A stretch of DNA of 64,000 nucleotides. It comes from Escherichia coli (GTDB taxonomy: Bacteria; Pseudomonadota; Gammaproteobacteria; Enterobacterales; Enterobacteriaceae). The stretch is taken from assembly GCF_003334785.1 (NCBI RefSeq), contig NZ_QOWV01000002.1. One strand, 5' to 3'. The notes below the pieces were generated by a model. It did no database searches, was not told where the DNA came from, and saw nothing but the letters and a program-made list of their open reading frames with translations. Position numbers and translations under genes: made by a program. Positions 7,232 through 22,864 of this stretch are shown piece by piece (position 1 is the stretch's first letter; each line of letters begins with the position of its first letter).

Positions 7232-8008
7232 ATGTCCGAAACAAAAAACGAACTTGAAGACCTGCTGGAAAAAGCAGCAACTGAACCGGCGCACCGCCCG
7301 GCCTTTTTCCGTACTCTACTGGAATCCACCGTCTGGGTGCCTGGTACGGCGGCGCAGGGCGAGGCTGTGGTTGAAGATAGCGCGCTTGATTTACAGCACT
7401 GGGAAAAAGAAGACGGCACCAGCGTCATTCCTTTTTTCACCTCGTTAGAAGCACTTCAACAGGCGGTTGAAGACGAACAGGCATTTGTCGTAATGCCCGT
7501 TCGCACGCTGTTTGAGATGACACTTGGCGAAACGCTCTTCCTTAATGCCAAACTGCCAACCGGTAAAGAATTTATGCCGCGTGAAATCAGTTTGTTGATT
7601 GGTGAAGAGGGAAATCCGCTGAGCAGCCAGGAAATCCTGGAAGGCGGTGAATCGCTGATATTATCGGAAGTCGCAGAGCCGCCAGCACAAATGATTGATT
7701 CACTCACCACCTTATTTAAAACCATTAAGCCGGTGAAGCGTGCTTTTATTTGTTCAATTAAAGAGAACGAAGAGGCACAGCCTAATTTACTTATTGGCAT
7801 TGAAGCCGATGGTGATATCGAAGAAATTATTCAGGCGACGGGAAGTGTAGCGACCGATACATTACCTGGCGATGAACCAATCGATATTTGTCAGGTGAAA
7901 AAAGGGGAAAAAGGAATTAGCCACTTTATTACCGAACATATTGCGCCATTCTATGAACGTCGCTGGGGTGGTTTTTTGCGTGACTTTAAACAGAATCGGA
8001 TAATCTAA
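7232..8008 (+). CDS. sseB: serine-sensitivity enhancing protein SseB
   Basis: Track ORF 7223-8008 trimmed to ATG at 7232 (MSETKNELEDLL...), 258 aa; synteny pepB-sseB-ryfA-sseA. Confidence 0.9.
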   Translation: MSETKNELEDLLEKAATEPAHRPAFFRTLLESTVWVPGTAAQGEAVVEDSALDLQHWEKEDGTSVIPFFTSLEALQQAVEDEQAFVVMPVRTLFEMTLGETLFLNAKLPTGKEFMPREISLLIGEEGNPLSSQEILEGGESLILSEVAEPPAQMIDSLTTLFKTIKPVKRAFICSIKENEEAQPNLLIGIEADGDIEEIIQATGSVATDTLPGDEPIDICQVKKGEKGISHFITEHIAPFYERRWGGFLRDFKQNRII

Positions 8009-8010
8009 AA

Positions 8011-8031
8011 TATGCCGCCCAAAGGGCGGCA
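8011..8031. terminator. GC-rich hairpin ATGCCGCCC-aaa-GGGCGGCAT between the sseB stop and the small ORF stop
   Basis: Perfect 9-bp stem with a 3-nt loop; on the minus strand it is followed by the U/A-rich run AUAUUUUA. Confidence 0.5.
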
Positions 8032-8038
8032 TTCGGGC

Positions 8039-8176
8039 TTACTTGCTGCTCTGAAGGTTGTTAACCACCAGTAAATTGTCGCCGGAGAGACTCCGGTTAT
8101 TATTTACCTCGGTTAACAGCGCACCAGAAACAATAAGTACGATACAAAAGCACCGTATCTTCATTGTGCGGTCCAT
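8039..8176 (-). CDS. candidate small membrane protein encoded within the ryfA locus (45 aa from the first ATG, 41 aa from an internal ATG at 8164); hypothetical TimP-like toxin
   Basis: Manual translation of the minus strand: MDRTMKIRCFCIVLIVSGALLTEVNNNRSLSGDNLLVVNNLQSSK, stop at 8039-8041, followed immediately by a GC hairpin at 8011-8031. Below the ORF-track reporting size (shortest listed ORF is 60 aa). No canonical Shine-Dalgarno seen, so this is speculative. Confidence 0.3.
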   Translation of the reverse strand: MDRTMKIRCFCIVLIVSGALLTEVNNNRSLSGDNLLVVNNLQSSK

Positions 8177-8294
8177 GCGAAGACCGCATCACGACAGCAC
8201 CACTGGCGATATTGCCGCGATAGCAAGCGCTGTGAAACACCTGCATTTACGGCCACGGAACATCCTTTCCTAAAGCCAGCGCCCGTTTGCGAGA

Positions 8295-8491
8295 CGGCGG
8301 AAAGGGCCGCAGTGGATAATACACTAACAGAACAATAATAACTCTCTTTTGCTTGACAAAAAGAGAGTTACTGGCGAGTATTGTCTCCGCTGAGACGCGC
8401 TTGCATTACTACGGTAATACAACCTGCTGGAAAGGCCGCGAACCGGACCAGCAACAAAAAACCGCCTGATTTTGGCGGTTTTTTGTTTTTT
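8295..8491. repeat. ryfA-locus tandem module, copy 1 (~200 nt, ends in a bidirectional terminator)
   Basis: Aligns by eye to 8617-8810 at roughly 80-85 percent identity; shared blocks GGCGGAAAGGGCCG, ACTCTCTTTTGCTTGACAAAAAGAGAGTTACTGG, CCTGCTGGAAAGGCCGCGAACC, then a terminator. Confidence 0.7.
8455..8491. terminator. bidirectional intrinsic terminator (AAAAAACCGCC-tgatttt-GGCGGTTTTTTGTTTTTT)
   Basis: GC stem flanked by an A-run on the 5-prime side and a T-run on the 3-prime side, so it is functional on either strand. Confidence 0.75.
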
Positions 8492-8616
8492 AAAGGAAAG
8501 TGAATTTACATGTTTAAGTAATATCTTTTACCGGTTAGAATTTTTAATTTTGAGCAGGATTTGTTTATATTTGTCTGAATTCGGACTAATAAGCCAGGTT
8601 ATTTTATTACCGAACA

Positions 8617-8810
8617 CGGCGGAAAGGGCCGGTGTCGATAATACGCTAAATAAACAATAATTACTCTCTTTTGCTTGACAAAAAGAGAGTTACTGGTGAG
8701 TATTGTTTTGCTGTGAAGCACCTGCGTTGCTCATGTAACACAAGTCAACCTGCTGGAAAGGCCGCGAACCAGACTAGCAATAAAAAACCGCCAAATTCGG
8801 CGGTTTTTTA
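8617..8810. repeat. ryfA-locus tandem module, copy 2
   Basis: Diverged duplicate of 8295-8491, separated from it by a ~125-nt AT-rich spacer. Confidence 0.7.
8782..8810. terminator. bidirectional intrinsic terminator; ends the sseA transcript and module copy 2
   Basis: AAAAAACCGCC-aaatt-CGGCGGTTTTTT, 15 nt downstream of the sseA stop on the minus strand. Confidence 0.8.
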
Positions 8811-19320: not shown

Positions 19321-20334
19321 ATGAATACTGAAGCCACGCACGACCAAAATGAAGCACTTACTACCGGCGCTCGCCTGCGTAATGCTCGCGAACAACTAGG
19401 ACTTAGTCAGCAGGCCGTTGCCGAGCGACTTTGCCTGAAGGTTTCCACGGTACGCGACATTGAAGAAGATAAGGCACCCGCCGATCTTGCTTCAACATTC
19501 CTGCGCGGATATATCCGCTCTTATGCGCGTCTGGTACATATTCCAGAAGAAGAACTGCTGCCAGGGCTGGAAAAGCAGGCTCCACTTCGGGCTGCAAAAG
19601 TTGCGCCGATGCAGAGTTTTTCCCTCGGTAAACGCCGCAAAAAACGCGACGGCTGGCTGATGACCTTCACTTGGCTGGTGTTGTTTGTGGTTATCGGCCT
19701 GAGCGGTGCCTGGTGGTGGCAAGACCACAAAGCTCAGCAGGAAGAGATCACCACTATGGCCGATCAATCTTCGGCGGAACTGAGCAGTAATAGCGAGCAG
19801 GGGCAGAGTGTTCCATTAAATACGTCGACAACTACAGACCCGGCTACAACGTCCACGCCGCCAGCGTCTGTGGATACTACCGCAACCAACACGCAAACAC
19901 CTGCCGTAACTGCGCCAGCACCAGCTGTTGATCCGCAACAGAATGCGGTTGTTTCGCCTTCGCAGGCAAATGTTGATACCGCCGCGACCCCGGCACCAAC
20001 GGCAGCAACAACGCCAGATGGTGCTGCGCCGTTGCCAACCGATCAGGCTGGCGTGACCACGCCGGTGGCTGATCCGAATGCGCTGGTGATGAACTTTACT
20101 GCCGATTGCTGGCTGGAGGTCACTGATGCTACCGGTAAAAAATTGTTTAGCGGTATGCAGCGTAAAGACGGTAATTTGAACTTAACCGGCCAGGCACCGT
20201 ACAAACTGAAAATTGGTGCGCCAGCCGCAGTACAGATCCAGTATCAAGGGAAACCTGTCGATCTGAGTCGTTTTATCAGAACTAACCAGGTTGCGCGTCT
20301 GACCCTCAATGCCGAACAATCACCGGCGCAGTAA
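19321..20334 (+). CDS. rodZ: cytoskeleton protein RodZ (bitopic, HTH plus Pro/Thr-rich linker)
   Basis: 337-aa ORF with N-terminal HTH ([12 protein letters not shown]), one TM segment and a PT-rich periplasmic region. Confidence 0.94.
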
Positions 20335-20360
20335 CAGACGGGTAACGCGGGAGATTTTTC

Positions 20361-21479
20361 ATGCATAACCAGGCTCCAATTCAACGTAGAAAATCAACAC
20401 GTATTTACGTTGGGAATGTGCCGATTGGCGATGGTGCTCCCATCGCCGTACAGTCCATGACCAATACGCGTACGACAGACGTCGAAGCAACGGTCAATCA
20501 AATCAAGGCGCTGGAACGCGTTGGCGCTGATATCGTCCGTGTATCCGTACCGACGATGGACGCGGCAGAAGCGTTCAAACTCATCAAACAGCAGGTTAAC
20601 GTGCCGCTGGTGGCTGACATCCACTTCGACTATCGCATTGCGCTGAAAGTAGCGGAATACGGCGTCGATTGTCTGCGTATTAACCCTGGCAATATCGGTA
20701 ATGAAGAGCGTATTCGCATGGTGGTTGACTGTGCGCGCGATAAAAACATTCCGATCCGTATTGGCGTTAACGCCGGATCGCTGGAAAAAGATCTGCAAGA
20801 AAAGTATGGCGAACCGACGCCGCAGGCGTTGCTGGAATCTGCCATGCGTCATGTTGATCATCTCGATCGCCTGAACTTCGATCAGTTCAAAGTCAGCGTG
20901 AAAGCGTCTGACGTCTTCCTCGCTGTTGAGTCTTATCGTTTGCTGGCAAAACAGATCGATCAGCCGTTGCATCTGGGGATCACCGAAGCCGGTGGTGCGC
21001 GCAGCGGGGCAGTAAAATCCGCCATTGGTTTAGGTCTGCTGCTGTCTGAAGGCATCGGCGACACGCTGCGCGTATCGCTGGCGGCCGATCCGGTCGAAGA
21101 GATCAAAGTCGGTTTCGATATTTTGAAATCGCTGCGTATCCGTTCGCGAGGGATCAACTTCATCGCCTGCCCGACCTGTTCGCGTCAGGAATTTGATGTT
21201 ATCGGTACGGTTAACGCGCTGGAGCAACGCCTGGAAGATATCATCACTCCGATGGACGTTTCGATTATCGGCTGCGTGGTGAATGGCCCAGGTGAGGCGC
21301 TGGTTTCTACACTCGGCGTCACCGGCGGCAACAAGAAAAGCGGCCTCTATGAAGATGGCGTGCGCAAAGACCGTCTGGACAACAACGATATGATCGACCA
21401 GCTGGAAGCACGCATTCGTGCGAAAGCCAGTCAGCTGGACGAAGCGCGTCGAATTGACGTTCAGCAGGTTGAAAAATAA
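20361..21479 (+). CDS. ispG: 4-hydroxy-3-methylbut-2-enyl diphosphate synthase IspG (GcpE)
   Basis: 372-aa ORF; Cys ligands in CPTCSR and GCVVNGPGE. Confidence 0.95.
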
Positions 21480-21567
21480 TAACGTGATGGGAAGCGCCTC
21501 GCTTCCCGTGTATGATTGAACCCGCATGGCTCCCGAAACATTGAGGGAAGCGTTGAGGGTTCATTTT
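21480..21567 (+). ncRNA. sroE: SroE-like structured RNA in the ispG-hisS intergenic region (approximate)
   Basis: Position matches the reported SroE location; hairpins GGGAAGCG-cct-CGCTTCCC and TGAACCC...GGGTTCA followed by a T-run. Confidence 0.4.
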
Positions 21568-21589
21568 TATATTCAGAAAGAGAATAAAC

Positions 21590-22864
21590 GTGGCAAAAAA
21601 CATTCAAGCCATTCGCGGCATGAACGATTACCTGCCTGGCGAAACGGCCATCTGGCAGCGCATTGAAGGCACACTGAAAAACGTGCTCGGCAGCTACGGT
21701 TACAGTGAAATCCGCTTGCCGATTGTAGAGCAGACCCCGCTATTCAAACGTGCGATTGGTGAAGTCACCGACGTGGTTGAAAAAGAGATGTACACCTTTG
21801 AGGATCGCAATGGCGACAGCCTGACTCTGCGCCCTGAAGGGACGGCGGGCTGTGTACGCGCCGGCATCGAGCATGGTCTTCTGTACAATCAGGAACAGCG
21901 TCTGTGGTATATCGGGCCGATGTTCCGTCACGAGCGTCCGCAGAAAGGGCGTTATCGTCAGTTCCATCAGTTGGGCTGCGAAGTTTTCGGTCTGCAAGGT
22001 CCGGATATCGACGCTGAACTGATTATGCTCACTGCCCGCTGGTGGCGCGCGCTGGGTATTTCCGAGCACGTAACTCTTGAGCTGAACTCTATCGGTTCGC
22101 TGGAAGCACGCGCCAATTACCGCGATGCGCTGGTGGCATTCCTTGAGCAGCATAAAGAAAAGCTGGACGAAGACTGCAAACGCCGCATGTACACTAACCC
22201 GCTGCGCGTGCTGGATTCAAAAAATCCGGAAGTGCAGGCGCTTCTCAACGACGCTCCGGCATTAGGTGACTATCTGGACGAGGAATCTCGTGAGCATTTT
22301 GCCGGTCTGTGCAAACTGCTGGAGAGCGCGGGGATCGCTTACACCGTAAACCAGCGTCTGGTGCGTGGTCTGGATTACTACAACCGTACCGTTTTCGAGT
22401 GGGTGACTAACAGTCTCGGCTCCCAGGGCACCGTGTGTGCAGGCGGTCGTTATGACGGTCTTGTGGAACAACTGGGCGGTCGTGCAACACCGGCTGTCGG
22501 TTTTGCGATGGGCCTCGAACGTCTTGTATTGTTAGTACAGGCCGTTAATCCGGAATTTAAAGCCGATCCTGTTGTCGATATATACCTGGTGGCTTCAGGT
22601 GCTGATACACAATCTGCGGCTATGGCATTAGCTGAGCGTCTGCGTGATGAATTACCGGGCGTGAAATTGATGACCAACCACGGCGGCGGCAACTTTAAGA
22701 AACAGTTTGCCCGTGCTGATAAATGGGGTGCCCGCGTTGCTGTGGTGCTGGGTGAGTCTGAAGTGGCTAACGGCACAGCAGTAGTGAAGGATTTGCGCTC
22801 TGGTGAGCAAACGGCAGTTGCGCAGGATAGCGTAGCCGCGCATTTGCGCACGTTACTGGGTTAA
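21590..22864 (+). CDS. hisS: histidine--tRNA ligase
   Basis: 424-aa ORF with GTG start ([18 protein letters not shown]...); class II aaRS motifs. Confidence 0.95.

Follow-up and report, generated by a model that had tools for sequence, protein, structure and literature searches.

How is hisS transcribed when it follows ispG on the same strand and the DNA between the two genes is given over to a structured RNA? The question is raised by the 64,000-nt stretch of Escherichia coli DNA analyzed here (the window), in which the genes rlmN-rodZ-ispG-hisS-yfgM-bamB-der lie in this order, all on the plus strand. The ispG-hisS spacer, from the end of the ispG stop codon TAA to the hisS GTG at 21590, occupies positions 21480–21589 (110 nt), and window positions 21000–22000 are 100% identical to E. 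coli K-12 MG1655. A 131-nt query made up of the spacer and its edges (21470–21600) was found at an identity of at least 95% in all 5,426 complete E. coli genomes, and of at least 99% in 5,384 of them. A first-pass annotation, made from the sequence alone, described two hairpins in this spacer followed by a T-run about 22 nt before the hisS GTG, and related them to the small RNA SroE, generated from the ispG 3′ UTR. It concluded that the spacer leaves hisS hardly any space for a promoter of its own and that the gene would be expressed by read-through or processing of the ispG transcript or from a promoter inside ispG. The features discussed below are collected in Table 1.

Table 1. Features of the ispG-hisS junction, in window coordinates.
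Feature	Start	End	Strand	Description and basis
ispG CDS	20361	21479	+	stop TAA at 21477–21479; ORF list and RefSeq annotation of the identical MG1655 sequence
sroE (b4761, Rfam RF00371)	21479	21570	+	92 nt; cmscan and NC_000913.3 annotation
Hairpin 1	21483	21514	+	MFE fold; conserved core 21488–21508 (GGGAAGC, 5-nt loop, GCTTCCC)
hisS promoter −10 box	21511	21516	+	TATGAT; single-stranded linker between the hairpins, 7 nt 5′ of the TSS
Hairpin 2	21517	21563	+	outer stem UGAACCC/GGGUUCA around a variable interior; folds
Primary TSS of hisS-yfgM-bamB	21524	21524	+	66-nt leader; Kim et al., 2012 and Yan et al., 2018
U-run	21564	21573	+	UUUUUAUAUU, directly 3′ of hairpin 2; conserved in all Enterobacteriaceae spacers aligned
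Putative hisS translation-initiation region	21577	21589	+	AAAGAGAAUAAAC, with a Shine-Dalgarno-like GAG; near-invariant in the alignment
hisS CDS	21590	22864	+	GTG start; ORF list and RefSeq annotation

The spacer element is SroE, an RNA that is already catalogued. The Rfam model RF00371 matched the plus strand over its whole length (model positions 1–92 of 92) with 116.6 bits (E-value 1.8e-28; gathering score 51 bits), and the ncRNA sroE annotated in NC_000913.3 at 2640595–2640686 on the minus strand corresponds to exactly the same bases, so the identification made in the first pass holds. The bases, strand, length, two-hairpin consensus, and position between ispG (gcpE) and hisS are those of the SroE type locus; this is that locus itself, with no difference, and what is added here is the overlap of the annotated RNA with the hisS promoter and transcription start site (TSS). 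SroE is said to have been first reported by Vogel and colleagues in 2003, and in PGAP-annotated genomes it is left out of the annotation. The gathering score of RF00371 was passed by 19 of 24 Enterobacteriaceae loci, at the same ispG-hisS position and on the same strand, and by none of the 16 loci tested from other Enterobacterales families. The annotated 5′ end of SroE lies on the ispG stop codon; a scan with a position weight matrix (PWM) placed no promoter-like hexamers for a start at 21479, and the searched part of the TSS list of Kim et al. (2012) holds no start there. An origin from the ispG 3′ UTR by processing, as had been proposed, is plausible on these grounds. The annotated 3′ end lies 7 nt past the hairpin 2 stem, a distance that is typical of intrinsic termination.

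The RNA of 21477–21589 is predicted to fold into two hairpins followed by the U-run, with a minimum free energy (MFE) of −41.6 kcal/mol; 200 dinucleotide shuffles of the same stretch averaged −24.2 ± 3.7 kcal/mol (z = −4.73), and none of them was as stable. This bears out the hairpins of the earlier description, and its T-run corresponds to the UUUUU at 21564–21568, the last U of which lies 22 nt 5′ of the hisS GTG. The 5′ arm of hairpin 1 overlaps TGGGAA (21488–21493), a weak hexamer at the −35 position of the promoter described below. Hairpin 2 consists of a 7-bp outer stem enclosing a branched interior and, folded alone, reached −22.5 kcal/mol (z = −3.9). With UUUUUAUAUU immediately 3′ of this stable stem-loop, it has the form of an intrinsic terminator. 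A simple consensus terminator scan of 20300–22000 did not call hairpin 2, because the scan looks for a loop of 3–8 nt on a continuous stem and a branched hairpin breaks this rule.

The start of hisS transcription has been mapped within this structured region. TSS-seq, in which 5′-triphosphate RNA is enriched with terminator exonuclease, gave a TSS at 2638663(−) in U00096.2 (Kim et al., 2012), and the 51-nt upstream sequence listed for it ends exactly at window position 21524. SMRT-Cappable-seq, in which 5′-triphosphate ends are enzymatically capped and the cDNA is size-selected to 1–6 kb, reported the operon b2514, b2513, b2512 (hisS-yfgM-bamB) with a TSS at 2640641(−) in NC_000913.3 (Yan et al., 2018); the hisS start is at 2640575 in that sequence, which again places the TSS at window position 21524. 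Two independent 5′-triphosphate chemistries, exonuclease and capping, agree on one base, G21524, which is 66 nt 5′ of the GTG. Read support in the exonuclease data was low, with a mean of 6 reads (Kim et al., 2012), and the supplements of Ettwiller et al. (2016) have no entry in the region. The first-pass annotation had itself named a mapped hisS TSS within the spacer as the observation that would count against its reading, and G21524 is such a start.

Upstream of G21524, TATGAT matches the −10 consensus at five of six positions and is invariant in all 21 aligned Enterobacteriaceae spacers; the hexamer at the −35 position, TGGGAA, is a weak match (3/6), 17 bp from the −10. Together, TGGGAA-N17-TATGAT falls in the top 0.036% of window positions scored with a classical sigma-70 weight matrix. 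A consensus promoter scan of 20300–22000 returned no promoter, a result that the weak −35 match accounts for; since the rules of such scans exclude a branched hairpin and a weak −35, an empty promoter or terminator scan is not evidence of absence. hisS has its own promoter, located inside the SroE sequence. The opposite conclusion, that the spacer leaves almost no room for one, failed because the promoter had been assumed to lie 3′ of the T-run. The hisS promoter was reportedly the subject of work by Eisenbeis and Parker in 1982 and by Freedman in 1985.

Two further promoter candidates were set aside. TTGACG (21454–21459)-N15-AATAAT (21475–21480) had the best PWM score (top 0.005%), spans the ispG stop codon, and would start transcription at about 21487, at the base of hairpin 1. 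No mapped TSS supports this candidate, and conservation does not extend to its −10, since AATAAT needs a double stop TAATAA that was seen only in Escherichia and some Citrobacter spacers. TATATT (21568–21573), taken as a −10 past the U-run, has no usable −35 and no TSS, and would leave a leader of only about 10 nt.

For the comparison across species, 80 loci encoding HisS relatives were fetched, and ispG lay directly upstream in all 80. The spacer measures about 80–115 nt in Enterobacteriaceae and 105–150 nt, more with insertions, in other Enterobacterales families. In Vibrionaceae, Orbaceae, and some Erwiniaceae it is 13–60 nt in most loci and up to 104 nt in Photobacterium; from these short spacers it is probable that co-transcription of ispG and hisS is the ancestral state.

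Two hairpins and a U-run were predicted in all 22 Enterobacteriaceae spacers examined, and conservation was counted in an alignment of 21 of this family. The arms of hairpin 1 (GGGAAGC and GCTTCCC) are invariant at 13 of 16 positions, around a loop that has no invariant position (0/5) and is always 5 nt long. The linker block CGTGTATGATTGAACCC is near-invariant, with TGTATGAT within it invariant at eight of eight positions; the other conserved blocks are GGGTTCATTTT and the hisS ribosome-binding region, where AAAGAGAAUAAAC would serve the initiation of hisS translation. The interior of hairpin 2 ranges from 7 to 36 nt and has no invariant column (0/37); the outer stem, 97.9% paired across the 21 species, and the U-run persist. 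As background, hisS codons 2–201 contain 26 four-fold synonymous sites, of which only 3 were invariant in the same species; ispG offered 4 usable sites, too few, and the hisS value alone was used. The interval from the −35 position to the −10 is free of indels, though the sequence of the hairpin 1 loop is not constrained, and judging from the alignment such an interval is what a promoter spacer would require.

A covariation test of both stems found 99% of positions paired and one compensatory pair (GC to UA, in hairpin 1), and 28 of 500 shuffles did as well; this support is thin because the stems are near-invariant. The case for an RNA structure comes instead from the persistence of the fold despite an interior that cannot be aligned. 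Hairpin 2 is reduced in Enterobacter to a short canonical terminator that comes directly after TATGAT, GAACCCAUUCUUUGGGUU with a run of 6–8 U behind it.

Repeats that resemble ERIC elements are inserted in the ispG-hisS spacer in four lineages (L006, L048, L054, and L076). In Pseudocitrobacter (L006) the repeat lies in the loop of hairpin 1, where the arms are kept and the −35/−10 spacing is destroyed, which argues either that the promoter can do without the assigned −35 or that hairpin 1 has a role as RNA. In L054 and L076 it lies in the hairpin 2 region, and in L048 at the TATA of a TTGAAG-N18-TATAAT promoter, with the TATAAT regenerated but apart from its −35.

hisS is also reached by transcripts from upstream. 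The transcripts ispG-hisS-yfgM and rodZ-ispG-hisS cross the spacer, with TSSs at 2641981, 2642925, and 2643004 (Yan et al., 2018), which are window positions 20184, 19240, and 19161. hisS thus has two inputs, its own promoter and read-through, and the earlier idea of expression by read-through stands as one route; as the only route it is contradicted by the TSS at 21524. A weak TSS inside ispG, at 2638974 (window 21213), had 4 reads (Kim et al., 2012), and the sequence before it, on reading, has no convincing −10. Two ispG-proximal TSSs lie inside the 3′ end of rodZ, so ispG also has internal promoters within its upstream gene: window 20184, which is 2641981 of Yan et al. (2018) and is preceded by TAATTT at 20172–20177, and window 20246, which is 2639941 in U00096.2 (Kim et al., 2012). 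Under three conditions, Term-seq gave no dominant 3′ end in the interval 2640500–2640799, in a list that holds only about 900–1,200 dominant ends per condition (Adams et al., 2021); the terminator activity of hairpin 2 in vivo is therefore putative and possibly weak.

We put a probability of roughly 70% on the reading that the spacer is a compact junction of two transcription units, with SroE as its RNA product, at which hisS is served by its own promoter and by a variable amount of read-through. Hairpin 2 and the U-run would act as a partial intrinsic terminator for transcripts that start at the rodZ and ispG promoters; those that are stopped would end at about 21570, and SroE would be what is left, stable and 92 nt long, after 5′ trimming at the ispG stop codon. 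The transcripts that start at the hisS promoter begin one base past the 5′ arm of hairpin 2 (UGAACCC, 21517–21523) and, because they lack this arm, should be unable to form hairpin 2 and should run through the U-run into hisS. The leader at 21524–21600 is predicted to be unstructured (−13.6 kcal/mol, z = −0.5), with no hairpin adjoining the U-run. SroE may be mainly a by-product of this layout; it might also act in trans.

Other Enterobacterales families carry a different, near-consensus promoter in the same spacer. The pattern TTGnnn-N17/18-TATAAT was found in 20 spacers from Yersiniaceae, Hafniaceae, Pectobacteriaceae, Morganellaceae, and Budviciaceae, 17 of them with the form TTGAAx-N18, and in most of them about 35 nt separate the end of the −10 from the GTG. 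A long hairpin is predicted to enclose the −10 at most of the loci examined from Yersiniaceae, Hafniaceae, and Pectobacteriaceae; its 3′ arm is CGGGTTCA, and a U-run follows. In Pantoea and Tatumella, TATGAT lies inside a canonical terminator hairpin (AACCUGUGCGG...CCGGACAGGUU, then 6–7 U). In all of these cases a start about 7 nt past the −10 would be predicted to fall in the 3′ arm of the hairpin. Morganellaceae have the plain order, a terminator and then a promoter. In the E. coli spacer, TTGAGGG occurs as a direct repeat within hairpin 2 (21541–21547 and 21553–21559), and the first of the two is aligned with the −35 (TTGAAx) used in these other families, which suggests that Enterobacteriaceae may have lost the −10 of that promoter and kept this copy as a relic.

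A more general proposal, to which we give a little less than even odds, is that the junction is an insulator selective for the start site, with a promoter nested in a terminator, and that this principle has been kept across Enterobacterales with the promoter in three different places. The −10 of Enterobacteriaceae would immediately precede the hairpin; in Yersiniaceae, Pectobacteriaceae, and Hafniaceae a TTGAAx-N18-TATAAT promoter would lie inside the hairpin; and in Pantoea and Tatumella TATGAT would lie inside the hairpin of a canonical terminator. TSS-dependent read-through of terminators has been described for a handful of cases in E. coli (Yan et al., 2018). As in those cases, transcripts with different starts would be expected to differ at the same terminator because their 5′ sequences differ; unlike them, the present case would have an explicit proposed basis, namely a downstream TSS inside the hairpin that would remove its 5′ arm. 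A nested layout, if true, would imply that selection has favored hisS expression independent of ispG within as little DNA as possible and, if confirmed, would be a compact insulation of adjacent co-oriented genes and a mechanistic basis for TSS-dependent read-through. The proposal draws together public data and the comparison of sequences and is modestly interesting; current knowledge is not overturned by any of this.

The overlap of sroE with the promoter and start of an essential gene has practical consequences. In a Salmonella TraDIS study, the SroE region was classed as required in both serovars tested (Barquist et al., 2013), a result that fits promoter loss or polarity on the essential hisS. 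Deletions of sroE, transposon hits in it, and calls of a required ncRNA such as this one most likely report hisS expression rather than a function of the small RNA. Equally, hisS does not simply ride along on the rodZ-ispG transcript; it has its own start in addition to the read-through input.

The alternative that fares best is that SroE is a trans-acting, Hfq-associated 3′-UTR sRNA, with the linker GUGUAUGAUUGAA as its seed and with hairpin 2 and the U-run as an Hfq-binding terminator. We regard it as unlikely; it is compatible with the junction of two transcription units proposed above and not exclusive of it. Two hairpins, an AU-rich linker, and a U-tail are a typical architecture for such an RNA, and the sequence is strongly conserved. 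SroE is among the Hfq-bound sRNAs listed for nitrogen-starved cells and was detected by RNA-seq in all conditions of one transcriptome series. In vitro, however, 9 of 10 predicted targets were unbound and only ligB was bound, weakly; overexpression gave no biofilm, motility, or fimbriae phenotype; and a published screen did not find the (ARN)x motif in SroE. The conserved linker, the only conserved single-stranded stretch, is explained equally well as the −10 box, other families have a different sequence here that gives no RF00371 match at the gathering score, and Term-seq does not list the 3′ end as dominant. The positive support for a trans-acting SroE is limited to the Hfq association, and no function for SroE itself emerged from this analysis or from published work.

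Processed 3′-UTR-derived sRNAs that share the terminator of the parental mRNA include CpxQ, SroC, and SdhX. SroE resembles them in starting at or near the upstream stop codon, in ending at a hairpin and U-run, in having no evident promoter for its 5′ end, and in its reported Hfq association. It differs from them in that it has no validated target or phenotype, its 3′ end is not a dominant Term-seq end, its "terminator" has an essential gene in the same orientation 20 nt further on, and its sequence contains a promoter.

That hisS has no promoter of its own, and is made only by read-through or processing from ispG or from a promoter inside ispG, is improbable. The ispG-hisS transcripts, the weak internal TSS at 21213, the empty consensus promoter scan, and the short spacers of Vibrionaceae, Orbaceae, and some Erwiniaceae all speak for it. 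As a sole mechanism it is contradicted by the primary TSS that two methods place at 21524, where the hisS-yfgM-bamB transcript starts; that TSS is preceded at the right distance by a conserved −10, the spacers of sister families hold strong consensus promoters, and the start at 21213 has no convincing −10.

The repeat that forms hairpin 1 (GGGAAGC-N5-GCTTCCC) could also be read primarily as a DNA operator for a dimeric regulator, overlapping the −35 and spacer of the hisS promoter. Its arms are near-invariant and do not covary, its 5-nt spacing is fixed around a loop of free sequence, and it spans −36 to −16 relative to the TSS. On the other hand, no regulator is known, an RNA hairpin would be expected to show the same pattern if its 5′ arm were under constraint as part of the promoter too, and the insertion in L006 parts the arms by about 75 nt in the DNA while RNA pairing would still be possible. 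We consider this reading more doubtful again than expression of hisS by read-through alone.

Least probable is control of hisS in cis by a leader that would respond to tRNA-His or HisRS as a T-box or an operator does: a T-box-like leader was hypothesized here by Barquist et al. (2013), the element always lies 5′ of hisS, was classed as required in two Salmonella serovars, and is carried whole ahead of hisS by read-through transcripts, but the TSS at 21524 is downstream of hairpin 1 and the linker and leaves the main hisS mRNA without most of the element, the hairpin 2 interior that would hold a specifier site has no invariant column and shrinks to a few nucleotides in Enterobacter, and the TraDIS result is explained by promoter loss or polarity. 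T-boxes and other cis-regulatory RNAs were rejected, since sroE was the sole Rfam match in 21300–21800 at E ≤ 1 and the interior is not conserved. The hisS T-boxes of Firmicutes have been reviewed in the literature; the present element resembles T-box leaders and leader-peptide attenuators in being a structured RNA with a terminator-like hairpin before an aminoacyl-tRNA synthetase gene, and differs from them in having no T-box match, no conserved specifier, no His-rich leader ORF before the U-run, and a main TSS that bypasses the structure. The only ORF of the spacer, 46 aa with 6 His codons (21526–21666, plus strand), starts 2 nt past the hisS TSS and overlaps hisS out of frame. As a His leader peptide it was rejected as a probable chance occurrence: its His codons come after the U-run, within the hisS gene, and outside Escherichia and Citrobacter the ATG is missing.

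Strong ORF-internal 3′ ends are listed within hisS at 2640434 (window 21731), 141 nt into the gene, and at 2640283 (window 21882), which scores 276,771, similar to strong terminators in the same table (Adams et al., 2021). These ends could be processing sites, pause sites, or the ends of an ORF-internal RNA. Elsewhere in the window, further Rfam matches at the gathering score are the iscRS stability element at 523–632 on the plus strand and, on the minus strand, ryfA (8007–8310) and IS128 RNA (8442–8650).
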